A DNA stretch of 42,293 bases, taken from contig NKIB01014596.1 of assembly GCA_002256025.1 (NCBI GenBank), forward strand, positions 1-42,293, read 5' to 3'. Positions 660 to 34,473 of this stretch are shown piece after piece (positions within the stretch are counted from its first letter, which is position 1; every line of letters begins with the position of its first letter). The notes under the pieces are model-generated. The model made no database searches, had not been told where the DNA came from, and was given only the letters and a program-made list of their open reading frames with translations. The translations under genes and the position numbers were made by a program. This stretch comes from Asterionella formosa. Its lineage: Eukaryota.

Positions 660-1288
660 AAAGTCGGTGTCCGTGTCATCCTCATCAATAGAGAGCCAAG
701 TTCTTTCGTTGGAAAAATTGGTACCGTATCATCATTCGCTCGTTCGAACCACTGTCCGTTGCCTCAAACCTGATTAGCGTTTGAGTACCGGTACCCGGTA
801 TGTGCACTGTCGACTTTAGTACATTACAGGCGGAGTGACTTCGCTACTAAATTGCGTGATATAATAATATACCCTGTAGCACGATGCAGAATACAGTTGC
901 TTCCCAATCATCTCATCATGATTGATAAGATGATACTGTGATATCATCATAAGGTTACATCGATGCATACATCACCGAAGTATGATACGTAATATTGAAT
1001 AATGTACATCACAGAGCTATGATAAACTGATCCTAAAATTATGATGATTTTATTATATGTTTATGATATAATTTTGATCAAAATATGATCATGTAAAAAT
1101 AGTACAATGACAATAAAATACGATAAAATATGTACGCAAGTGTTACCAAGACATCATAGAAAATAAATCAAGCAATCATAAAGTATGTTAATTAATATTT
1201 ATGTTTGTCCTTTAATGTATACAGTTAAAGTCAACAGTTAATATGATAGTATTATACAGTGGATAGGATCTAAGTATACGGATGCGTT
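660..1288 (+). repeat. Right-end segment of a dispersed element, copy A (direct repeat of 12259-12886)
   Basis: Colinear with 12259-12886 over about 630 bp, with identical blocks such as GGTTACATCGATGCATACATCACC and TACAATGACAATAAAATACGATAAAATATGTA. Similarity stops sharply after GGATGCGTT in both copies. Confidence 0.9.
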
Positions 1289-4200
1289 AACAAATTCATG
1301 CGAAGAATGAAAATATCGGCGGAAACGTGGCTGACAACACTTCAGAAGTAGAAATGGTTGAAAAGTTGCAAAACCAAGAAACATACTTCCATGCCTATCT
1401 CGGTTAAAAAAAAATCAATGGTGATCTCGAACAGCCTACGTGCATCCCGACTTAGAAGAATGATCCCCATTCTTCCAGTTCCACTTCCTGAGAACACATA
1501 TCGGGTTGTGGTTAAATGGAGACTTCGAGTACTGCTTGATCAGCATCGTGACCACACTCACCGTATTGTTGCTAGTAGCAACAAGTTTTAACCTTCAGAC
1601 TGAAAATTTGTATACTAATCTATCTCTCGTCCCAACTTGGCTGCTCCGAGAAATTAGGGGTATCGTTTTTTGGTGCAGCGGACTGAGATCTCGCTCAAAC
1701 CAACAACAACTTCTTCCTGGAAACACTTTCAGAGTCATGCCTTGTTAATCCAATATCAAAAAAGACGCACAGGAAACGCTTAACCAGCAAGTCGTTAGAT
1801 TGAGAGAGTTCATAAATCGGCTGCACTGAGCAGTCGAATTGCATATGTCACAATTGAAAAATAGGCAATAGTGAAATCCTATGTAAATTAACAAAACCGT
1901 GATGAAATATTTTTTTATCTTAAATAGAAATGGTGAATATTTGTAATCATCATCATGACAGAGCAATGAAGCAACAACAATCCACCATGGCAGATACAAA
2001 TGGCGACCATTTCAGGGAAGAAGTGGGGAAATTCTACTGTTTACTGTACCAGAGGCATATGCGAAGTGCCATGCATGGCATCTAGGCCTACTCTTGTGCT
2101 TAATGTGATATTTTTAGACTTAATTTAGCTTCTAAACCAGATAGCAAAAACGACAAGATTAATGTGGAAGGAGATTTCGTTGCCATTCACGCAATTTGGA
2201 TGCTGATGATGGGGATCAAACAAGAAGGCCAATCTCTATTTATGTTCCCTATTCATCCGAAAATCTAACAACTGCTCCTTCTGGTTTGTTCTTGTTGAGT
2301 AATATACATATTCATCCTCCAACTCCTGCATCAAGAAACCAAGGAAACCAATCAACAACTGAATTAATAACCACCACGCATTCACCACCCATTCTCCTCA
2401 GCAGCCATAAGAAACACAAAAGACCATTCTCTACAATCGACCAACAAGAAGACGAAGAGTTGCACCAGTTCACTCCCCAGTTTGCATTTGACAAATCCAA
2501 GACAAGAAATGATTTATTGTTGAGTACTTCGCCCAACAACTCCACCTACTCTGGTTCCCGAAAATATGCAAGAAAACACTATGCAATCAAGCAACAGGAA
2601 TCAACTCTAAGTATTCACTCTTACTACATGTTTCCATACCCGACATACTGGAGGAAAAAATCTGTTTTTACATGTCAAGTGCTCAATGTGATACTCCTTT
2701 TCTTATTTACATTCTTCTTAAAACTGAGTTTTTCTTAAAAATGAGCAATGCTCCTTTGTAAAACATACTGGTTTACACAGAAACTGTGCTTTATTTTACT
2801 CGATTGTTACCACAAAACTATTTCATATACCGATATATATTGAAACAATTATAATTACTGGTAACACTTTCCCTGTTACCTGGATTTTACATGTTGCTTG
2901 ATACTGCTATGATATCGCCAGGATTATATTCTTCAAGAAATCGTTCAGACCTCTCATATCAATGATCACTTTAAGTTTTCATCTTTCCTCCTGTCTTCCC
3001 TCTTTTGTTTTAACTCATTTCACTAGTGATTTTGATGTTTTACATTGTAATATTTCAAGTTGCTTAGTTGGGGCGCGCATGCCAGGAATTCACAGTTGAC
3101 GTTCTACATTTTGGATGTCATCGAATTATTATGGTGCACAGGAACAAGCAATATGAAGTCATTGCCTACTATGTTCTGACAAAAAAGTAAAATTCTGACA
3201 TTAAATTAATTTTCCAACTAAAACATATTATCATACTTATATTTGTACATAAAAGCAGGTGATGCCAGCTGCATGGAGCAATAAAATAAAATAGCTTGTT
3301 CACTGCATTTCTTGTTGACTCCAAAAGTTGGGCAAACATTTGTACTATGGAAAATAGGCTAGTGGATGAGTTCAAAGTACAACCAATTTTGATAAGTGCA
3401 TAAATCACTATACCATGATTGCTTGAGTCATCATGATTATATCTAGAATGCATATTTTGTCCAAAACGTGAATTTACTCAAATTACCATAAGCTTGTAGT
3501 GCAAAATCTTCAAAATGATGGCTCTCAAATTTTCTGTGGTGGCAGGTACCCTACCAGCTAGGTAACATGATGGAGTGCTGTGACTGATGATAAAACCCCT
3601 GTACAATATCAGCAAAAACAAGTTGCAGTCATTTTGCTGAAACGGACAATGTGATGCCAGACATGCGCTTCTTTCATCTTATGTAGCTAGTCATCAAATT
3701 ATCTGTGTCACGGCTTACTAGTGACACGGCAATTATATTCTTCCAAACGAAAAAACGACGTCAAATCAGGGGCAAATAGCAAAGTAGCACATGACAATGT
3801 CTGGTAAGAAAAATAAGAAGCAGGTTTTATTGGTATGCTTTAGTAGCTGATAGAGCATGTTGCCTTTGATCTGAAGTTGTGTGGTTCTATTCCTGCCTGC
3901 AGTTCTTTTAGAGGCAATTGTTGGGTTCGACTCTCACACTCCTCATCATCCCCATCCAACGCATTGCTGCCTGGTCACGTCATGCATGAAAGAAAGGTTT
4001 GCCCCCCTCCCCTAGTACAAGTAGCTTATGCCGCCTTCCTAGTGGTGACAGTCTCCCCTATTAGCACTGTTGCTAAGATGATCACTTTACTTTTCAAGAA
4101 AGATTTTTGGGGGCTCACCAACTATGGTAAAGTTAAGGGAAGCGCAGGTCTTGTCTGAAGGCCATACTATTAACTACTATGTGTAACTCTCCAGCAAGGT

Positions 4201-12886: not shown

Positions 12887-15773
12887 GATATGTATTTCAC
12901 CTTGCCAAAAAGTGCTGCATCATCCCTGGATGCATGAAACAATTGGAATTTTTATGCACCGATACAGGATATCTTCCACAAGAATACCATACACCTGAAG
13001 AAATTGGTTTATTGGAATCTTTCTATACTGGCACCAAAGCACCATTACAGATCATTATGGTTATAGCACATGATTCCATGTTATTTCAACCAGAAGATGA
13101 TAGTTGATGCTCATGTGGACCATTTACAATTGTGAAAGTGTTGGAAACTCTATTGCAATTAGAAAGGAATGACACAAAAAAAGCACAATTCCGTTTGGAG
13201 ACAGAGTCCTCGTAAGTTTTAAAACATCAGGAGGTAGCAACAGATCGAACAGACGATTTGTTACTATCTGTTACATCTGCCCCACCAGCCAAGTCAACAT
13301 ACTTTCATCTTGGAACAAATTGGCCTCAAGTGACAGCAACAAATTCTCGTGAGGATATGTTTCAGTTGGAAATAACTGTTCTTCAATTTTGTATCGACAA
13401 AATTTTGAGCTCCTATTTAGATTTTAAAATGTTGAACAAAGTATTTGGACGACTAACTTGCAATTCATCTTTCAAGAAGGATGATGTTGTCAACGTGAAA
13501 TCCATGATCCAACAAATGAATGACAAAGTTGCTCCCTTCAAATGGTATAATCATGCACCTCTTGGCCAAAGTTCTGGATGCATCAAAATTGACAATAAAT
13601 TGAAAAAATATTTTGTTTTGATGATAGCCCTTCTGGAATCAAATTGAAAAAGTTTACAGACTCATATTGAACTGCAGTTGAAAAGTGGAGAAGAAAAATT
13701 TCGGACGAAACGATAAGGACCATCTTAGGTTCTTTGGGAGTGAAAAAGAAACGTTCAATGGTCTGATTCATCGGAAGTAGTGCATCAGAACCATTCTTCC
13801 ATATGAAATCGGCAAGCTCTGGGTCACTTTCCACTTCTTTGCCTAACTCCATGAAGGAAACCATTTTATATACTCTACTGATTTTAATAATTTTTATCTA
13901 GAACTCACTTCGTTTTCGTTCGTCTCCTGAAAATCGGACTCCGGCAATTCATCTTTCACCATGCCGATCATCATCCATCATGACCGGTTTGAAGCGAAAT
14001 CAGGTTAGCTATGACGTCAGTAGCAATTCGTTGTCTAACGGATGTGGTTGGTTGTTGTATTGCTTGTCTTCTCGAGGGATTCATGCAGTCGCATCGTCCA
14101 TTTTTCGTCGGACAAACGATGATAACGATACATCTGATGTTGGTTTACAGTTTTTGCCCAGGTCATGCATGTGATGATGTTGCCTTAATGGATATTCTGC
14201 CGGTATTTATCTAGCCTACATATGTACGTGTACTAAAAGAACCATGCATGGTTTAAGCTAAACTTTAATGCTTACTTTGAACACGTTATAATATTATTTC
14301 TGTAGAATCAGTATTGTTTTTACGAGACCAGAATGTTCTATTATATCGTTCACATATTGATTGATTTTACATACCGTCTGCCCGATTTCGTCCTCACAAT
14401 TATAATTGTCACTCTATCCTGCCTGCCATTGCTCAATTCGGGCTTTCAAAAGGAACTTTTGACTTTCTTATGAGCCCATCGTATGCTTCGTGTTACGCTT
14501 GTTAGTGGATCGGTGAGTACAGCGAGTACATTTGTCAAACACTGAATGAGATCATAGATACAATTGTCGAATTTCCGATTTGATTGCTACCATGGTCCAT
14601 TTTGATCGCTTCCATCGTTGTTTGTCTTTCCGCACTGTCGTTTTGTTTCGATTGTATCTATCTACATAAGAACCAATGTATTTATCAATGACTACTCTTT
14701 GACGACGTATTGTTGTTGATCGTATTTGTTAATTTGTATAGTCGATGACCATGATGTCAATATTGTCGCCAAGCAATGCTTTTCTTCAACTGACGCATTT
14801 TGCTACATTTCTACTACAAGTTCGTATCACAAGCTACATAAATACTCAGCTAGAGAGAGTCAATAGTGCTGGAGCAGCGTGGCGATCACGCTCGTTCAGA
14901 ATGGAATGAATAGGGTTGCTAGTTTGCTGCTGGGCGGAGGAATGACTTTGGCGGAAATACTGCTACTGGTGTCAGGCTACTACAGCGATGTGCATGGTTG
15001 CAACAACTAGAATATTTATGCTAAATAACGATGCAGGTCAAAATTGGGTTCAGCTATTTTTCTTCTTCTTTCGGTCTTTGATTGTGTGGTGATGGAAAGT
15101 CAATGTTGCCTGTGTAAGTACTACAATGATTCACAATGCATATGTCTCCATTGAAACTCCTATTTTTACTTCATTTCTAACCCATAACAATTTTTTCTAT
15201 TTCTTATTTGATGCAACTTATTACATCGCATTTCATACTTTGGTTGCCCAAACATCATGTTCAATTTTCATTGATGTTGCATGTTGTTACAATCATTCTC
15301 GTGTGTTTTACGCTTGTTGTACCATCTCCATGCATATTATTACCCTGGTACCGTTATTCTGGTTGTTACTTTGAGCCTAAAAATTACTTAAAAGTACCCG
15401 AATGGCAAGACGATACCGGTAGATGGAGCGGGAATTGCTGTAATACAATACAATTTGTTAAGATAATACAGATGCTGGGCGGTACAGAGTAACAGGTAAG
15501 ATTAATATTATAAACAATGAATCACTTACGCGCTGGTGGATGCCGGTGCTACCTGGTACGTATTATCTGTCATCATGTCCGATCGTTATTAAAAAGAGAG
15601 GCTCAATGACGTTTCTCAACCTCAGTCAGACGGTACATATTGTGAAGACAGTATGATACTATGTATTGGACTGATTCTGGTTTCTTTACTTGGAACCAGA
15701 GTACCGGTACCGAGTATGAAGCAGTTTCCGGCCTTGACCCCCATCGACAGCAGACTGAAGCCAGACCCTCATC

Positions 15774-17243
15774 ATGGGGTCTTGCCCGCAAATACTGCTG
15801 CTCATATTAAGTGGATTATGTTCTAGCACATCTTTCAGTCCGCATGGCGCAATAAGTTCCAATAGGTTTGCTGCGGAGCTACCGTCACGACGTAATGGAC
15901 GAGAGGTTAGGAGGTCCTGGAGTCTGAATACTGCACCGGATGCGCCCGTAGGCGTATTGGAAACCGACTCTGTACCGTGTGTAACTTCTGTTCATTTGCT
16001 TTCCCTTCAATATCCAGATGATAGTAATAAGAATAACCCTCGCCTCTTTTCTAAGCGACTCAAAGAGGTTTGGAAATGGAAAGACGCCGTCCTGGGCGAT
16101 GGACGTGATTTCTTTGTTCCCAAACCAAAAACGCTGAAAAAGATTCAATCTGTCTTTATCAAGCGGAACAGTAAGGGCCTGTCTCGTAATCGGAGTCGGA
16201 GCAGCGTCCATTCTGATTCTATTTTGACCATTGACGAATGCGCCATTTTGTCCAATTGCGCAAGATTGGAAATCATGTTGGTAGTATCCACGACAATCAG
16301 AAATGATGAACGCGTCGACGCCCATCGAGATCAAGAATTGGATAATATACTGAAGGCAGTTGTTTCCAACACGCTCTTGGATCAAGTCAGATTTTACCAA
16401 TCCATGTCCTTTCCGGGAATCTTGCAAGAGCAGCTAAAGAAATTGGATCGCCCAAGTGTCATCCATGACTACGGCAGTGGTGACTATAAAAGTGATAACT
16501 CATCGTCGCCTTCGAGTGCAAGTAGTAGCGTCAATGACTTGCGAAATTATTGGGATCATGTGCAAGGCTCTGAGGACGTTTGCCGTTATTTATGCCTCGT
16601 GGCTGCCGGGATGGCGATACGGCCTAATAGACCATCAAAAGCCGTAGAATTCCGACCATTTTCATCTCGAGACGCCCATATATTGCTGCAAATCAAACGT
16701 ACCATGGAGGGTTCAACTGGAAACATTTGTCAAAAGATTCTCCAGTCCGCCCTGACAGCTGGAAAGGCATGTCGCAATATAGATAAGGTACCAGAAATCC
16801 AGGTGCTTAAACCAGGAATCATGGGTTATACCAAGAATGATGAACTACGAGCAAAAGAGGCTGCCTTGGAAAAGGCCATTGAACCTACGGTGCAAGAGTG
16901 CGTCAATAGCATTGTTGCAGCTGGGCAGTCACAGAGAATACAAGATTTACGAGTAACTGTCATGAGTTGGAGCACAAATGAGCATGAAGCAAAGTGGCTG
17001 CGAAAGCAATTGCATAAACCAACAATGGAACTAAGGAAAAATCTGCCAGTTGAGGGAGAGATTACAGAATCCTCAAGAAGTGATGGATTGGTGTTAGCAT
17101 CATTGGATCTGACAATAAAACAGCTACAAAAGGATTTTCAATCATGGCGACAGGTGCAGGAGTTTGAAACAACAAGAAGCACAATGAACATGGACATGTT
17201 ACCTATCTATCAACAAAGTAGTGATTCCAGTAAATGCTTATAG
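15774..17243 (+). CDS. Glutamyl-tRNA reductase (HemA)-like protein lacking the NADPH-binding domain, probably plastid-targeted
   Basis: 489-aa intronless ORF with a signal peptide and TSF-SP transit start. It contains ECAILSNCARLEI (cf. LSTCNRxE), RYLCLVAAG (cf. HLFxVAxG), HILLQIKR (cf. QILxQVK), ILQSALTAGKACR and C-terminal LHKPTMELR. Confidence 0.75.
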   Translation: MGSCPQILLLILSGLCSSTSFSPHGAISSNRFAAELPSRRNGREVRRSWSLNTAPDAPVGVLETDSVPCVTSVHLLSLQYPDDSNKNNPRLFSKRLKEVWKWKDAVLGDGRDFFVPKPKTLKKIQSVFIKRNSKGLSRNRSRSSVHSDSILTIDECAILSNCARLEIMLVVSTTIRNDERVDAHRDQELDNILKAVVSNTLLDQVRFYQSMSFPGILQEQLKKLDRPSVIHDYGSGDYKSDNSSSPSSASSSVNDLRNYWDHVQGSEDVCRYLCLVAAGMAIRPNRPSKAVEFRPFSSRDAHILLQIKRTMEGSTGNICQKILQSALTAGKACRNIDKVPEIQVLKPGIMGYTKNDELRAKEAALEKAIEPTVQECVNSIVAAGQSQRIQDLRVTVMSWSTNEHEAKWLRKQLHKPTMELRKNLPVEGEITESSRSDGLVLASLDLTIKQLQKDFQSWRQVQEFETTRSTMNMDMLPIYQQSSDSSKCL

Positions 17244-18388
17244 TATCCTTCTATTAAGAGTACTAATACAAGAAAAATGATTGCAAGAGCACTAGCATCC
17301 TGTAGCCACTAAATGCAAAGTAAAATGTGTGAGTGGACCCATACATAAGTAACTAAACTACCAGGATAGTTTTGAAATAGTTCTGTCATTATCATTTCTA
17401 GAAGGAATACCTAGAAATAACTTAGGCTATTGACTCATAACTTCATGGAAACTTGTTTCTCAAATTTTCCAATTTTATATTGAGTTAAACTTGCAGTCTA
17501 CCTGTAAGTGAAAATAGATTTCCCTGCTGTTTCTAATAAAAATAAAGACAAGCAAACAAAGAGACTCTAACCTTGGTACCACCAGTACCATATGGCTCAT
17601 CAATATGAGCTGTTCACATGTGTGAAGATTTACCATTGCAAGCACATTAATTGAGTCGATCTACCCAATCATGAATACAATTCCAGACTTATTTCTGTAT
17701 TGAAATGATGTACAAACTTGAATAGCAGCACCAATTGCCAAGTAGTACTATATAATTAAACCAAAGTGTGGTATATTCGAATGGAACAATTTTAAAAGAA
17801 ATCAATATTTCCCTGAAGGAAAGGAAGATATGCAATGCAGATAGGATCTCACGTTCATGTTTTCCTAAGTTGTCAATATGGAGTTTAGCTGTCCTCAGTT
17901 AAGTGATGATGATGAATGACTACTAGTAGCCTACTACCTCCCCAAGGAATACTATCTATCAGAGCTACTATACTGCCATCTTTTGAAAGACAACCTAAGA
18001 ATGGCTCTTATGAATGTTTACTACTAGATCAATCAAATAAGCTCAAGAAAAGATGGCGAAATTAGAACAAAAGGTTTTGTACTCAGAGCTTGTCGAGAAA
18101 GAGCTGCCTACCCAGTAGCAGTGCAGTTATATCAAGATGCAGAAGAATTTACTGGCAACACACACACAATACGATACACTTCTATAGTAGCCATTAGCTA
18201 TGCAATGCCCATATACCACCAGTGGTGCGGCATACGCACACACGGCCTTTCCCAAAAAGGACTAGTCCGATTGGTCCCAAAACAACCGTTGCTCCAAATT
18301 TTCCATATAGTTATTCAGATCTGTATAAGCAACTTTACCCTCTACGTATCATTTTAAATCTCACATTCCTCCTCCTATTCTGTTAACC

Positions 18389-20238: not shown

Positions 20239-21417
20239 TCAGGGCATCATGCGCTTATCACCTCTGGATGCATGCAATTTCGCAATGTTGGCAAACTCAT
20301 CACCCAAGCACGTCAAAATGTCACTCCAAAGATCCGATGCATTATCTTGTTCGGTTGTGGGTGCACCCGCATACCTCAACATTAAATCAGGCGAGACAGC
20401 CACGGGATACCAGACATTCTTAGCAATCTCTCGCGACAACTGTCCCGCCACCCACGCCGCGTGTCCCTTAACAAAGAGAGCATTTTTGGGGTCGAATCGA
20501 TTGATGCGCACTTCATTCATGAGTTCTTCGGATCCGCCGACAAAGACGCCAGGCGCAAGTTTGCGGGCACCGTCAACTTCGGCCCATCCGTGGAGGATGG
20601 AGTATTCTTCTGGGTTGACTGGTCCACCGTAAGTAACGGGAGATGACTTCATGGCTAGTTTGAGCGACAAGTCGAGCTTGGAGTCCGACTCGGACGCAAT
20701 TTTCATCAGGTCGCCGTTGAGGGGTCTATATTGGAACGAAACAATGATTCCGATGAGAATTATAAAAAATATCTGAATAATGCACGTTTCTTCCAGAACT
20801 CACCTGTTGATCACAATGCCGGTTGATCCCTGAGATTCCGAATGCTCAATGACCAAGACCACTGTCTGGTGAAAGACCCCTCCCAACTTTTCGTTCGCCA
20901 CCAAGACGCATCCTGCTTCGACGTGAGGAATCAAGTGCGCCCACCGGTGCTTGTCGATCGTAACCTTTCTCTGAATAAAGACGGGTAGCTCCGCTTCACT
21001 CACAAATGGATCATCCGGCATTCCCACGGAGTCTCCGTTGAAAATGGTATCCAAGTGTTTGTTGGTCACTGTTGGCGCAATCGGAGGCTTGGGCGAGAAG
21101 ATGCTGGATATGGCCCCGGCGAAAATGTCTCCCAGTTGTCCCTGTTTGGCGAGCTTTGCATCGCCTTCTGCTGTTGCTTCGGCCGCTGCTTGGTCCTCGA
21201 TGCGTTCTTGTGCCACCAGTCGTGCACGAAAGAGTCTCCAATCATTGTCCATCATGTCTTCCAACTGCTTTTCCACAAAGGCGCGATCGTTGTTCTTCAT
21301 GGACAGCGAGGAGGCAGTCGCGCGCATAAGTGCTGGAGGAGAAAAGGCAGCGGAGGGTTGCACCACCATCAGAAGCAGCGAGAGAGCTGCGCTGCAACGT
21401 GAAAACGAACAAGTCAT
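20239..21417 (-). CDS. Plastid-targeted DUF179 (AlgH/YqgE family) protein, 2 exons (21417-20804, 20725-20239)
   Basis: PSAAF-SPP bipartite signal, then [26 protein letters not shown] and [17 protein letters not shown]. The 78-nt GT-AG intron keeps the frame. Confidence 0.9.
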
Positions 21418-27164: not shown

Positions 27165-28672
27165 CTACTGTTCTGGTTCTACACTTGCCGTCGCTTTTAC
27201 TGCCTCATCTTGATCAATTGTATCTTTTCTCAGGAGCCCGAGGGAGTTGTATGCAGTCCAGGGAACTTCAGCAGTAACCCCCAAGCGAATCCATTGTGTC
27301 ACAATTTTCTTCTCACCTTCAACAACAGGACAGCCTGAATGTTCTGTGAATCCGCTGTCCATGATTTTCGTTTCAGGATTGATGTACGAGAAAAAAATTG
27401 CGTTCCCCTTTATAGGATGCACATGAAGTCCAGAATTTCTGAAGTTCGTTGCCCCACCCTTGGTAGGAATCGTGCAGTACATAACCATGGTTGCCATTCT
27501 ATTTCCATATTTGTGAGGATCACCGGTACATTCGCCATCGCAGTGAGGCATGTATTGATCTGGTTTAGTTTCATTTTCTCCACGTCCAAAATACTGAATG
27601 CTCATCAAGTCTTCTTGTCCAATTTCGCTGATATTCAAGTTTAAAACAAAGTTCGTGTAGTCGTAGACTCGTCGCGAAATGGCGGCAATATGATTTCCAT
27701 CTGCTTCCTTCTCCCATGGTACTTTAATTCCAGCTTGCATGGCCTTGCGGTTCTCGCTGAGTTTGTGTTCTCCTGCGCCATCTGCCACCACGGCACGATG
27801 CAACGTAGGCGCTGCCTCCTCTTCCATGGCCAGACATTCCTCTTCGGTAATGAAATTTTTCACCACGTGAATACGAGACGCGGGTCGATCATGCATGATT
27901 TCAACGTCCAATGTGATTTGTCGCTTACTGTCGAACCACGTTGTCAGTTCCTCGGGTTCAGAGGTGGGAAGGTCAAAGTCTGCACACGTGTAATTCTCGT
28001 AATACTCTCCCATTTTTTTTCGGGTTGCAGCACTAAAGGCAATTTCGTCAGCAACAAAAGAAAGTTGATAAGCGATTTCTTTTTCCATGCATCCAGCGAG
28101 TTCAGCCAGAATTGCTTCGGCAACGGCATCTGTGTTTTGAAGGTTCTGCTTAGCAAGTGCAGCGCAGTCCTCCAGTAGACTACTTGCGTCCTTTCGTGCA
28201 GTCGTCTTGTGATCCTCGTGGATAATTTTGAAGTTTTTGTTAATGGTAAGAACTGGAAGGTAAATCATATACTGTTAGCTACAGAGGCTACACTCGTAAA
28301 GCGGAACGTTGAGGAATGTATGGTATACCACAGCTTGAATTCGTAAAGCTCACCTTGATCTAAATTGTCGCTAACAATGAAATACTCGACCCTGCACTTT
28401 CCAGGAGTCACGCATTCCCCAGTACTCTTCGAAGGCAGCTCTTTCACTTCGAATTTGTGAGTGACAAACGATTTCAGATCAAAATCAGCTCCAGAAACAA
28501 TATCAGGCGTAGACATCAAGTGGAGCGATCCGTCATCAGGACTAACCCAGCTCACTGAAGCGCGTCTACCACACTCATTTCGGATGGTAATGGGTCGTGG
28601 TATTTGGACAGACGAAACTATTTTGAGGAAGAGGAGGACAAGCAGGGTCCTCAGTGCACTTGCTATCGCCAT
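27165..28672 (-). CDS. Secreted/ER prolyl 4-hydroxylase-like 2OG-Fe(II) oxygenase with N-terminal VHL-beta-like domain (paralog 1), 2 exons (28672-28354, 28252-27165)
   Basis: Signal peptide, then NFITEEEC, YMPHCD (HxD), RMATMVMY, GGATNF and EHSGCPVVEGEKKIVTQWIR (distal His and 2OG-binding Lys). The 101-nt GT-AG intron keeps the frame. Confidence 0.88.
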
Positions 28673-29570
28673 GGTGGAGCTGCTGTTGACTGCAGAAATA
28701 ATGATCGGTGTTGGTTCGGATTCGCTAATAATAAAGAAGCAATGCTGTCCCATGTATTCATACCGTAGTGGGATGGTACCTGGTACCAGGTACCAGGTAC
28801 TGCCTCTGGATGAAAATAATTGAGTTGAATCGCGGGCACCACTTGCTCACATATGAAGGATTACGTAGGCAAAATAACAACTTTCTACGTGAGGATTGGC
28901 TTACTCGAAAAATGCGTTTGTTATTAGTTTCTTAGACGTGAACATACCCCGCAATTATTTTCAACCACAGGGTATACCAGGTACGTGGTATCGTGTACAG
29001 AGCACGTACAGAATACCTGGGACAGTACGATAATCATGTAGAAATTAGCAGGAGAAAGGAGCCGGTAACAAATACGTTCTTTACCGGTACCTGATTGTAC
29101 CAGGTATACCGGTATTTAAAGTTACTACCAGGTACAACGGATCATGCAGCATGCAAAAAAATAAAGCAATATATACCTGCCAGATGCAGTCATTTTGCTT
29201 GAACAAACAATTTAATACCTGATAAAGGCAGCTAAATCCTCAGCTCAGCAAAATTACCGGAACTTGCGCGCTGGTACCCACCGGTAATATTTTTCTTCTG
29301 TCTCTACCAGTACCAGGTAGTACCAGGTAGGTACCATCCGGAAAGAAATCCTTTTATCTGTCACGCTTGTTTGGCTGGCTGTTTTACGGCGACACAATTG
29401 TGTTGTCGGCGAAGGAAACTGACTCACAAAATCGTTCGGTGCCACCAGGTAGAATGTTCGTGGTCCATCACCCCCTGTCACCTCAGTTTGTTGAGTGAAA
29501 AGGACAGTATGCACCCTCATCCGGTTACTACTCATTATTTTAAGCAATTCTCAATCTACAGACCATCATC

Positions 29571-30193: not shown

Positions 30194-30982
30194 TTACGAG
30201 AAGTGAGTTTCGTGACTGCGTTGTGCAGTATCACTGAAGTGGCCCATGTCGCCGTCTTCTCCAATTAATAATTCAGGGGGAACTCCGGGAGGGGGAATTT
30301 CAATTGGTGCTTCCTTCGGTAGGCCTTGTTCTGCACGGAGGTGATCTTCGTATATTCTCCTTCGATAACAGTTTTCAATAAATCCCAAAATGCCTTGAAT
30401 AAAGTCTTCATCTTTATCATTCTGATTTGCCCATAGACCTGGATCCATTCGTTGGTATTGATCGATAAAATCGCTACAGAACGTGTCAGCAAGCATCGAT
30501 TTCCCTGCTGCAAGTGGAATTTTCGACGCAGACTCACAAAGCTGGTCTTGAGGTGTCATGTAATACCATGTTGCACCCCCAATTACGCAAGCTACTGCCG
30601 CGTCGAGTATTGTCGAGAAAAAACCACCAACAATCCCCTCCTGAAACACGGACCGTCCATCAAGGCGACTAGTAATACGGGGCATCATGGATATGCTAGA
30701 TGTCGTAGAATTCTGAGGAAAGTCAAGGCCCTTGGCTTGCAAAGTTTTAATTGTATTGTTCATGTGGAATTTCGGCAATTTCCTCAAAAGAAGAAAGGTA
30801 AGCACGGAAGCTCCCATGGCATAGTATCGTCCTACTCCCAACACAACTTCCATGGTTTTCTGGTCCGACTTGGATGGCCGCTCGACGAGGTCTCCACGAA
30901 GATATTTGCGATGGCAAATGTCATAAAATGGCGTGAGCAGTGCTTGTGATCTGCTGCTCGCCTCTTCGTTTCCTTTTGACAT
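30194..30982 (-). CDS. Hypothetical two-TM protein, paralog of 31619-32296
   Basis: 262-aa ORF sharing IPL.AG.S...D..C.D.I..YQ.....LW and FIE.C..R...E..LR.E.G.....P..IP.PGVP with its neighbour. Confidence 0.85.
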   Translation of the reverse strand: MSKGNEEASSRSQALLTPFYDICHRKYLRGDLVERPSKSDQKTMEVVLGVGRYYAMGASVLTFLLLRKLPKFHMNNTIKTLQAKGLDFPQNSTTSSISMMPRITSRLDGRSVFQEGIVGGFFSTILDAAVACVIGGATWYYMTPQDQLCESASKIPLAAGKSMLADTFCSDFIDQYQRMDPGLWANQNDKDEDFIQGILGFIENCYRRRIYEDHLRAEQGLPKEAPIEIPPPGVPPELLIGEDGDMGHFSDTAQRSHETHFS

Positions 30983-31618: not shown

Positions 31619-32296
31619 ATGCCTGAAATCTTCGCACAGTTCAAGAATAAAACGATCGACGATGAAAAAGCTGAAATGTTGGTCAAGCCACTGGTGGACT
31701 GGCTGACGCTCAAGTCCAAAAACGAAGAAATTACCAACAGCAATGCCAGCGAAGGAGAAAAGGATATCATTTATAAGGTTCTGAACAAGGGGATAGTATG
31801 GGGCTTTACTGGTGGAATCGCGTCCATGCTAGTCATCCGTTTTGGACCCAGATATCTTGCGAAAAGGCTTTTCCCCGTTTCCAATATCAGGGAGCAACTA
31901 CCACCACAGCCGGAAGTTGTGAAAGTGGGATTTTCATACTATCTAGGTGCCGCAGTTGATGCTGCGATGGGAATCATTTGGGGTGGTCTCATCTGGTACG
32001 GTACTACCCCAAGGAAGTATATATACGAACAAACAGCTGAAATTCCTCTCCTGGCGGGGAGATCACATATTTCTGATGCACTTTGTGCCGATTCTATTCG
32101 TTATTATCAAGAGTCGCCCAAGGAGCTGTGGATACGTTATGGAAAGCATCCAGATGTGTATGGTTGGCAAAAATTCATTGAAAGTTGTCAAAAAAGGCAA
32201 CATTTCGAACAGCAGCTCCGAGAAGAGTTGGGCTACGCCGAAGACCAACCAGTAGACATCCCAGAACCTGGAGTACCAAGAGAAACAATTGGATGA
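31619..32296 (+). CDS. Hypothetical two-TM protein, paralog of 30194-30982
   Basis: 225-aa ORF with the same conserved C-terminal blocks, transcribed divergently from its paralog. Confidence 0.85.
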   Translation: MPEIFAQFKNKTIDDEKAEMLVKPLVDWLTLKSKNEEITNSNASEGEKDIIYKVLNKGIVWGFTGGIASMLVIRFGPRYLAKRLFPVSNIREQLPPQPEVVKVGFSYYLGAAVDAAMGIIWGGLIWYGTTPRKYIYEQTAEIPLLAGRSHISDALCADSIRYYQESPKELWIRYGKHPDVYGWQKFIESCQKRQHFEQQLREELGYAEDQPVDIPEPGVPRETIG

Positions 32297-32499: not shown

Positions 32500-33834
32500 T
32501 TAATACCGAATCTTGTGAGTGACAATCGTTTTGTCACCTTCGATCACCGGACATCCCGAATGTTGCGTAAATCCGGTATCGGCCTTGAGGGTCAGCGGAT
32601 CAACGTACGAGTAGTAGATAGCTGATCCCTTTTGCGGCTTTATATGGATTCCCGCATTGTTAAAATGAGTACTTCCTCCAACCAATGGAGCTTCACAGTA
32701 CGCAATGACAGTGGCGACTCGGTCGCCCTTTTTGTGCTCTTCTCCGTTGCAAGCGCCATCGCAGTGAGGTTCGTACCGATCAAGCGACTCGGCATCCGCT
32801 CCCTTGCCACTGTACTTGAGCACAAAGAATTGTTCCGAGTTCAATGAAGTTGATGCTTCCAAGGAGATGCCATTCAATTGATCCCTTGCGTAACCATAAA
32901 ACCTACGTGCCAAAACAAGCAGAGGGGACATCGGAGTTTGTGGAATAGTTACACCTCCCTTGCTAGCCCACAACCCATTTGCACCGTCGATTCTCTCTAG
33001 CTTGACAGCCTTTTCTACTGCCGCACATTCCTTATCCGAAATGAAATCTAGAATCAAATGAATCTGAACATTAGGCCGGTCCATCATTACCTTGACTTGA
33101 TTCGACATTTTCTCCTCTGGGAATGTCCAAGTTCTGTTTTCAATTTCGGCCGTTTGTTTCATTTTTGGGTCCACACATGCATAATTGATCAACTTATTTC
33201 CCAGTCGAAGTCTAACAGTTTCTTGAAAGTCGATTTCTTCTTGCTTTTTCGCCATGGATGCGTTGACGCTTTCATTGATGCAGGTCAATAATTTGTGGAA
33301 ACTGTCTGTGCTGAGCGTGCTGTTAGTTGCAACGATTTGAGCTTTGCATTCCTTAAGGACTTCCGCTGCCTGGTCTTGAGCTTTAGATTTGCTGTCCGTA
33401 TGCACGATGGTGGTCAAGTTGGTTGTAAATCTGACCACTGTTGGTTCGATGGGTTCGGATTAGTGCAAGGCGCCTAGGTGAATCACGAGTCACAAGTGCC
33501 AGCTATCCCACTTACATTGGCCATCATATTCATTCACCTGAAAGTACCCTTTACGACACTCATTGTTTTCACCTTTGCAAAGGCCTGTTTTCTTGGCAGG
33601 AACTTCAACGACCTCAAACTCATGCGTGATAAAGGACTTGATAATCGTTTCCGATCCGTGAAAGACTCCATCAGGCGAATTCAGTTGTAGTTCATCGTTC
33701 TTCCAGCGATTGATCCAGTAGATGAGGACTTTGAAGCCTGCATTGTTGATCACTCGGACGTCCCGAGATGCACCCTTACCGGCAAGCGCTGATGGGACGA
33801 CGAACAATAGAAAATAGGTCGTTAAGCGCATCAT
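32500..33834 (-). CDS. Secreted/ER prolyl 4-hydroxylase-like oxygenase with N-terminal VHL-beta-like domain (paralog 2), 2 exons (33834 or 33858-33516, 33437-32500)
   Basis: Signal peptide, then DFISDKEC, YEPHCD, RVATVIAY, GGSTHF and QHSGCPVIEGDK. The 78-nt intron is at the same position and phase as in paralog 1. Confidence 0.87.
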
Positions 33835-34473
33835 TTGTTTTCCGCAATCAGTAATCATAAACTATTTGTTCATACATTGCGGCCGTGACTTTTTATTATT
33901 TTATGATGGCTGCATGCATATAGTGAGTACGGCTTCCGGTCGTATATTCTGAGCTAATAATATAGCAAAACATTGCATACGGTATACTCTTGAACATAGA
34001 AGTAGCTAGCCTGCCGGTAAATGTTGTTTGTACCACATTTTAGCGTACTATTTGTCTGGCTGACGTGCGTCCCATTACACAACGTACGCGCCAGCCCGTG
34101 GCTCGGCGACATCCTAGGGCGTTGATTTTTGAGTCGAGCCAGTCATGAATAGTGCAATGGTGTGTTCATTACACACCGGTATTCATATAACCTATGAATC
34201 TTTTTCGTTCAGTCTACCGGTAGACTAGTCATAAAAATATGTCTGTCTATGCCATTGAAGTCGCCCTCGTCGAGCTACAGTCTGTTGATGATAACTTTGT
34301 GTTCAATATAATGCATGATACAGGATTGCATGTTAGGCATGCAGGTGAAACCCTGGGAACTACCTGAGTTCCAAAAGATGCGCTTCGTTTACTACTGATG
34401 TACAGCAACATTATTAATACCAGTACTGTACTACTCCATGCCACATTTGTCGGGCATGCGCAAAAGGTTGCTA

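Follow-up and report, generated by a model that had tools for sequence, protein, structure and literature searches.

A HemA paralogue without the NADPH-binding domain in the diatom Asterionella formosa and its relatives in other algae

In glutamyl-tRNA reductase (GluTR, the product of hemA), a cysteine attacks the ester of glutamyl-tRNA and NADPH held by a second domain reduces the resulting thioester, as described in passages of several accounts of the enzyme (PMC7242693, PMC6399207, PMC3778395). GluTR also has an esterase activity, which the accommodation of NADPH is proposed to prevent according to part of the text of PMC4726326. Passages of a study on P. tricornutum describe its GluTR as single-copy and plastid-localised by green fluorescent protein fusion, and ascribe one GluTR gene to diatoms (PMC11914136); excerpts of another report extra GTR copies in some dinoflagellates and mention no domain-less form (PMC6078071). 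Here, we describe a single-exon open reading frame (ORF) at 15774..17243 (+) in a 42,293-nucleotide stretch of the Asterionella formosa genome (assembly GCA_002256025.1, contig NKIB01014596.1, positions 1 to 42,293 of the forward strand; hereafter the window), which encodes a 489 amino acid GluTR/HemA paralogue without the NADPH domain (P0001, the query of our searches).

As judged from its sequence and predicted models, this paralogue is HemA-derived and comprises the catalytic domain, the spinal helix and the dimerisation domain. Its family is a real, conserved and apparently undescribed HemA variant: our full-text literature searches, which mostly left subscription papers outside and whose supplements may list members as hypothetical proteins, returned no description of a GluTR family lacking the NADPH domain, and the T. 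oceanica member THAOC_35948 was not found in nine supplementary files of PMC3491386 (one of them partial).

The closest known system is HemA/GluTR itself (TIGR01035; PF05201 + PF01488 + PF00745; PDB 1GPJ, 4N7R, 5CHE and 5YJL), which also provides the best structural matches. Both proteins have the catalytic fold, the Cys-x-Arg, HLxxVAxG, ILxQ and AGKxxR motifs, the spinal helix, the LHxP motif and, by prediction for the paralogue, a plastid-type presequence. In contrast to GluTR, the paralogue has lost the NADPH domain, carries RDAH in place of GExQ, differs by T49N, S109P and G7S, harbors two conserved insertions and a shortened dimerisation domain, and has evolved much faster outside the pocket. 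The GluTR-binding proteins FLU (a tetratricopeptide repeat, or TPR, protein) and GBP (a DUF2470 protein) show no homology to it and neither is derived from GluTR; no Pfam match to TPR or DUF2470 was found in the query or in 77 members of the family. Aminoacyl-tRNA deacylases and transferases, which include DTD, YbaK/ProXp, L/F-transferase and the cyclodipeptide synthases (the latter also using a covalent acyl-enzyme), are alike only in the proposed chemistry of ester cleavage or transfer, and their scaffold appears to differ from the GluTR fold and cysteine nucleophile of the paralogue.

Gene integrity, homology to HemA and the missing NADPH-binding domain

The 489-codon frame is open throughout 15774-17243 (+), and a genome search identified one copy of the gene. 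Part of the ORF is present in 17 public runs, seven of which contain at least half of its words. Placing RNA runs on positions 14800-18300 yielded contigs, informative of neither strand nor level, that cross the ORF in four runs from three studies, one per run (15625-17256, 15789-17245, 15538-17260 and 15530-17221), all of them without gap or joint inside it, as matches an intronless gene. These contigs support an unspliced transcript and leave its abundance unproven. The 24 listed variant sites within the ORF fall in 23 codons, 12 with synonymous and 11 with nonsynonymous changes, and none of the 11 lies at a conserved position. An earlier note on this DNA, made from the letters alone, had described the gene as intact and named lack of expression as counting against its claim; the open frame and the contiguous RNA contigs bear out the former, and transcripts are present in the RNA runs. 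It should be noted that the stretch 17374-18300 is devoid of RNA contigs, a hole which in itself proves nothing.

Homology to HemA is weak when the query is taken alone. Its GlutR_N match (E 4.4e-4, 20.5 bits) lies below the 27-bit Pfam cut-off and its TIGR01035 score is 9.3 bits against an equivalog cut-off of 209.55. The paralogue is a HemA variant that does not belong among the reductases. Across 77 members, Pfam detected GlutR_N in 71 (E ≤ 0.1), GlutR_dimer in eight and Shikimate_DH in none. In a separate scan of long or distant members, GlutR_dimer rose above the Pfam cut-off in P0188 and P0192; in the query it stays below. Comparison with a profile of 34 diatom HemAs through hhalign gave probabilities of 93% and 96% (E 1.9e-9 for the latter), and the family profile retrieved Arabidopsis GluTR as its sole match in the PDB, where phmmer, started from one sequence, gave no useful hit. 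AlphaFold models of the query (pLDDT 82) and of the distant member P0200 (pLDDT 85.7) agree with these results. Among 48,161 chains, the query model matched two solved GluTRs best, with Z scores of 17.1 (Arabidopsis) and 13.9 and rmsd values of 3.8 and 4.5 over 235 residues (next Z 7.6), and the P0200 model matched the same two with Z scores of 19.5 and 17.2 and rmsd values of 3.8 and 4.7 over 256 and 245 residues (next Z 8.3). The structural alignment spans from the first strand to the dimerisation domain, reaching residue 524 of 4N7R and 404 of 1GPJ. Foldseek gave no match at E ≤ 0.001 for the query model, yet GluTR chains occupied ranks 1-7, and six GluTR matches under 0.001 for P0200; the ESM Atlas held no usable match for P0001 or P0432. 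GluTR tops the fold lists and helical bundles fill the remainder, with no known deacylase or transferase fold (DTD, YbaK/INS, GNAT-like or CDPS) among the matches, which does not exclude one. Thus, the GlutR_N homology presupposed by the earlier note is real, if weak in the single sequence, since the family matches, the HemA profile comparison and the two models secure it.

The same note had recognized a spinal-helix and dimerisation-like tail, and this assignment is supported by the model helices (residues 354-397, 403-422 and 433-474) and by the structural alignment to the GluTR dimerisation domain. We place the spinal helix and shortened dimerisation domain at 16833..17195 (+), characterized by IxxLR and LHxPTxxLR motifs, here IQDLR (16938-16952) and LHKPTMELR (17010-17036).

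A merged alignment of 20 members and 15 canonical HemAs contains one clean gap, which opens directly behind AGKxxR and closes where the spinal helix begins. Measured where both motifs were found, the AGKxxR-HxP spacing is 80-153 residues, with a median of 92, among family proteins (154 of 300) and 249-280 residues among canonical HemAs (66 of 120). In the query, AGKACR (16758..16775, +), the counterpart of AGKRVR at the catalytic domain's end, is followed by a short linker with one small helix (16791..16832, +) in place of the ~160-residue NADPH (Rossmann) domain, and the spinal helix of the model begins about 20 residues past AGKACR. A diatom HemA NADPH-domain profile, which recovers the genome's own HemA at E 3.9e-87, did not match any of 230 family proteins and had no hit when all six frames of the window and of 44 related loci were searched; the GAGxM motif is likewise absent from all 230. 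Both motif and profile therefore agree with the claimed lack of a GAGxM Rossmann domain, and no hidden one was detected. The separate canonical hemA that the earlier note had called for is also present, as a complete gene with GAGKM elsewhere in the genome (contig C503), whose product is 81-100% identical to diatom HemAs over the matched part (81-89% for most of those listed).

With this predicted domain content, the paralogue cannot be a self-contained reductase. It could still be a reductase if reducing power were delivered in trans, whether from a second subunit or through ferredoxin/thioredoxin chemistry, and the retained catalytic Cys, Arg and Glu/Asp166 position would be compatible with this. 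We consider such an arrangement improbable, because no free HemA NADPH domain was found in the genome (the assembly may be incomplete), where the Shikimate_DH-type matches are the complete HemA and one ornithine-cyclodeaminase-like ORF (labelled by sequence reading), and because the Gln of the Q116 position, which we take to be the residue tied to hydride transfer, has been replaced.

Many database relatives end early, which, together with the weak Pfam score of the query, might suggest a decaying pseudogene or a gene-model artefact hiding an NADPH exon. However, the loci of these relatives have short introns at one shared position and the early ends are read-through into them; the introns are too small for a 150-residue domain and have no similarity to the NADPH domain. 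Taking into account the 489-codon frame, the jointless RNA contigs, the hundreds of relatives and dN/dS values well under 1 (see below), this explanation is refuted by the RNA contigs, the domain search and dN/dS, and we give it virtually no credence. We also considered the short relatives as a natural form without the dimerisation domain and rejected this idea, as they run into introns.

The rebuilt active-site pocket and its candidate activities

The GluTR-type catalytic domain (residues about 69-339; 15978..16790, +) carries family-specific insertions, and its active site is where the family is most uniform, even though members are only about 25-63% identical to the query. Conservation was counted over 316 sequences, near-duplicates included, using E. 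coli numbering that was verified against a retrieved hemA sequence. The SNCAR motif (residues 160-164; 16251..16265, +) contains the nucleophile position, C50 of E. coli, as Cys162 (Cys in 301/301), and R52 as Arg164 (Arg in 300/301); T49 corresponds to Asn161 (Asn in 266, Thr in 35) and E54 to Glu/Asp166 (293/302). The earlier claim of a kept nucleophile thus extends across the family, and SNCAR starts exactly at 16251, with AGKACR, IQDLR and LHKPTMELR also found where they had been placed. In YLCLVAAG (16587..16610, +), the HLxxVAxG equivalent, H99 corresponds to position 272, which is Tyr here; since this position is His in 228, Tyr in 42 and Arg in 36 of 311 sequences, the His-to-Tyr change noted earlier is lineage-specific and not a family trait, and we rejected it as a mark of inactivation.

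Downstream, the pocket has been rebuilt. The S-x-x-x-G-E-x-Q motif is replaced in the family by P-F-S-S-R-D-A-H, with S109 as Pro295 (312/314), G113 as Arg299 (304/312), E114 as Asp300 (301/312) and Q116 as His302 (307/311), and with Q120 kept as Gln306 (309/311); in diatom HemAs, GEGQILSQ is present in 120/120. The RDAH of the RDAHILLQ noted earlier in place of GExQILxQ is shared by the family. RDAHILLQ falls within 16650-16703, and the rebuilt pocket as a whole, consisting of an Arg/Pro-rich inserted loop and FRPFSSRDAHILLQIKRT, occupies 16620..16703 (+). This loop, ahead of RDAH, is one of two new conserved elements; the other is a W-x-W-K-D-x-x-L-G-D-G motif, here within the family-specific W-K/R-W-K-D-x-x-L-G-D-G-x-D-F-F-V-P stretch that canonical HemA lacks (16071..16127, +; W102 in 282/284, K103 in 283/283 and G108 in 290/291). 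At least 90% conservation is reached at 33 of 237 positions of the catalytic domain versus 3 of 88 in the spinal helix and dimerisation domain. The clustering of conserved positions in the pocket and the unvarying nucleophile speak against the "pseudo-reductase" of the earlier note, if a dead enzyme is meant by this. Conserved positions with Lys/Arg number 19 as opposed to eight with Asp/Glu, an excess that fits an RNA ligand.

The plastid-type presequence previously claimed was also predicted, by a crude heuristic, in the query and in many members. In the query (15774..15977, +) a hydrophobic signal peptide (residues 1-20) is followed by an STS|F cleavage motif, as in bipartite plastid presequences, and the remainder is a Ser/Arg-rich, transit-peptide-like stretch modelled with low confidence. 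Among family N-termini, 112/228 combine a signal peptide with Phe, compared with 223/4,560 shuffles (a crude rule, not a validated predictor), and 65/228 have Trp, Tyr or Leu instead of Phe; sequences with short or non-Met starts or without the anchor motif were dropped (72/300 family, 56/120 canonical). Import of the paralogue into the plastid is thus likely on the predicted presequence. The distant members P0188 and P0183 have long presequences in which a second hydrophobic segment precedes basic residues, presumably the three-membrane plastid pattern of euglenophytes and peridinin dinoflagellates.

The reading that we tentatively favour, and that may well be correct without being the probable one outright, is that of a plastid enzyme which keeps the first half-reaction of GluTR and then releases glutamate by hydrolysis. 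The paralogue would be imported into the plastid and bind glutamyl-tRNA, glutamate would be moved onto Cys162 as a thioester and, without a hydride donor, this thioester would be hydrolysed and glutamate released, with His302 and Asp300 possibly activating water or the cysteine. Such an activity could drain the glutamyl-tRNA(Glu) pool that feeds 5-aminolevulinic acid (ALA) synthesis, or clear mischarged glutamyl-tRNA(Gln). We propose that water or another acceptor ends the first half-reaction because the hydride domain is lost, the nucleophile is invariant and the new His/Asp/Arg set is fixed. E. coli GluTR reportedly tolerates T49V, S109A and changes of H99, and its Q116L variant is said to lose reduction and keep esterase activity; the positions altered in the paralogue are, we assume, those that can be changed without loss of thioester formation or that serve hydride transfer alone.

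Several observations weigh against glutamyl-tRNA hydrolysis. Five pocket positions are changed (T49N, S109P, G113R, E114D, Q116H), so that the substrate may not be glutamate or a tRNA ester, and the invariant pocket residues would be equally expected of a non-catalytic binder. One of 15 aligned canonical HemAs, the full-length Azospirillum protein, has His at the Q116 position; this position is Glu in M. kandleri and one further archaeal HemA, which warns against over-reading His302. No presequence signal was seen in 39/228 family N-termini, and the signal in canonical HemA (56/64) is stronger than that of the family. Finally, hydrolysis of glutamyl-tRNA, if left unregulated, would squander ATP and be in competition with translation in the plastid. 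Given the cost of such a futile cycle, the hydrolase would be expected to be regulated or specific, e.g. for glutamyl-tRNA(Gln), an intermediate formed in plastids.

The futile-cycle objection is escaped if the Cys162 thioester is resolved by an amine or alcohol acceptor, such as a protein terminus, a metabolite or a lipid, which would make the paralogue a tRNA-dependent glutamyl transferase. With the NADPH domain gone, the active site is exposed on that face, and an acceptor site could be built from the WKDxxLGDGxDFF motif and the Arg/Pro loop. But no acceptor or pathway is indicated, conserved gene neighbours were not found among the 44 loci, the 11 long or distant members scanned contain no fused partner domain, and we regard this alternative as unlikely. 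One 862 amino acid member (P0299) is lengthened by a long stretch in which no additional Pfam family was detected.

Alternatively, the paralogue could be a non-catalytic regulator that sequesters glutamyl-tRNA, pairs with true GluTR or titrates GluTR partners, and thereby dampens ALA synthesis. The spinal helix and dimerisation domain retain their core pattern, P0188 and P0192 pass the GlutR_dimer cut-off, and plant GluTR is described in part of PMC4726326 as controlled by binding proteins, with FLU acting at the dimerisation domain. The genome has three DUF2470 matches, this being the domain of GBP according to passages of PMC12016751. Nevertheless, a decoy would need neither an invariant nucleophile nor fixed new pocket residues, and the dimerisation domain is shortened and variable although its canonical partner is highly conserved in diatoms, which leaves the regulator rather doubtful. 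A complex prediction of paralogue residues 345-475 with residues 364-495 of HemA P0303 scored 0.00 twice, in runs made without alignments in which the controls did not fold, and counts neither way. On the conservation pattern, hydrolysis or acyl transfer would fit better than heterodimerisation. The three DUF2470 matches, all above the cut-off (C12180, C2887 and C12778; loci L061-L063), are candidate GBP-like or haem-binding partners.

Mere reuse of the fold by a cysteine enzyme or sensor whose substrate is unrelated and not a tRNA would account for the rebuilt pocket and the long stem branch of the family (1.58 substitutions/site), but the conserved basic residues and the retained V-arm architecture fit a tRNA-sized ligand, and we hold this explanation to be very improbable. 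In sum, the earlier interpretation as a regulator or esterase stands in its description of an intact, conserved, HemA-derived and NADPH-less protein with a predicted presequence, in a genome that has a separate canonical hemA; the functions that it proposed are putative, and the link to tetrapyrrole flux is one that we infer.

Distribution, descent and selection of the family

The family search retrieved 198 relatives among 7,997 scored candidates (120 listed), and a profile built from 77 relatives gathered 425 clusters at 50% identity, of which the best 150 are listed, most of them without a name. Named diatom members come from both pennate and centric genera (Mayamaea, Cylindrotheca, Fistulifera, Amphora, Astrosyne, Extubocellulus, Chaetoceros, Corethron and Thalassiosira), and the named members outside diatoms are from Symbiodinium natans, Dinoflagellata sp. 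MGD and the green alga Cymbomonas tetramitiformis. The family forms one clade (support 100), on the long stem mentioned above, in a tree built from 35 sequences and 248 columns, and splits into a group of named diatoms (support 89, with Corethron apart) and a group of the green alga and dinoflagellates (support 92). Its placement beside cyanobacterial and diatom HemA has a support of only 45. The family profiles score the diatom and Nostoc HemAs highest of 15 canonical sequences, which hints at plastid descent. Two database labels concern these members: the Cymbomonas member appears in one UniRef record under the name of a GluTR dimerisation-domain protein, and the S. natans member (P0196, CAE7391523.1), which falls together with the green alga and the dinoflagellate that has a green plastid, is labelled 'uidB', an evident misannotation.

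Within the reach of pattern or tblastn searches, GTDB genomes gave 15 pattern matches and viral contigs 33 matches with no confirmed member in either, and plasmids gave no member; these results, and a profile search of which the best 150 of 425 clusters were listed, leave room for a bacterial branch of the family. A scan of bacterial HemA with diatom words identified one locus. Azospirillum accounts for seven of the 58 matches in the plasmid collection, and the full-length HemA of the alphaproteobacterium Azospirillum argentinense (L053, NZ_CP007794.1), with TCDR, GEPH for GExQ and GLGDMG for GAGxM, may be an atypical GluTR.

The set compared for selection comprises 34 of the 44 related loci and, in addition, the window, whose gene has no unsaturated partner. 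Among the 30 closest pairs shown of 567, dN/dS was 0.14-0.34 in 14 non-independent pairs (dS 0.11-1.71) and 0.32-0.48 in the five near-identical pairs with any change, on few sites (L009/L012 0.48); the remaining shown pairs are identical or saturated. With dN/dS well under 1 in these pairs, the values indicate purifying selection, as opposed to the neutral evolution that the earlier note had named as counting against its claim. As the family demonstrates, GluTR can lose its reductase domain by clean excision and still have its active site under selection. None of ten window neighbours matched any of the 44 related loci, and shared neighbours are limited to close relatives. One metagenome contig (L026) carries two family genes tail to tail, at 871-2152 (+) and 2469-3714 (-), a local duplication.

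Neighbouring genes and implications for the GluTR step

Upstream of the paralogue we found no repeats of note; the interval 14800-15420 of the window is covered by many short, deep and loose-ended RNA contigs, as for a genome-wide dispersed repeat. Elsewhere in the window, the exons at 20239-21417 (-) encode a DUF179/AlgH-like protein (weak Pfam match) with a plastid-type presequence. Two divergent ORFs at 30194-30982 (-) and 31619-32296 (+) have similar C-terminal halves with IPLxAG and GVP motifs and appear to be a duplicated pair. Two similar genes with HxD...H motifs, which we take to be prolyl-4-hydroxylase-like, lie at 27165-28753 (-) and 32500-33858 (-), each after a similar signal-peptide exon.

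GluTR is the rate-limiting and most heavily regulated step of tetrapyrrole synthesis, its substrate glutamyl-tRNA is shared with plastid translation, and the control of this step in diatoms has been little studied. It is possible, if on the doubtful side, that the family represents a new class of aminoacyl-tRNA-using enzyme that arose from GluTR by deletion of the reductase domain and installation of a His/Asp/Arg pocket, and that, retained throughout diatoms and also present in dinoflagellates and a prasinophyte, would act as a plastid glutamyl-tRNA(Gln) editor or a glutamyl transferase at the point where translation in the plastid and the synthesis of chlorophyll and haem part ways. A conserved second, reductase-less GluTR paralogue in dominant marine and freshwater algae is a direct candidate for control of the GluTR step, or for new tRNA-dependent chemistry.
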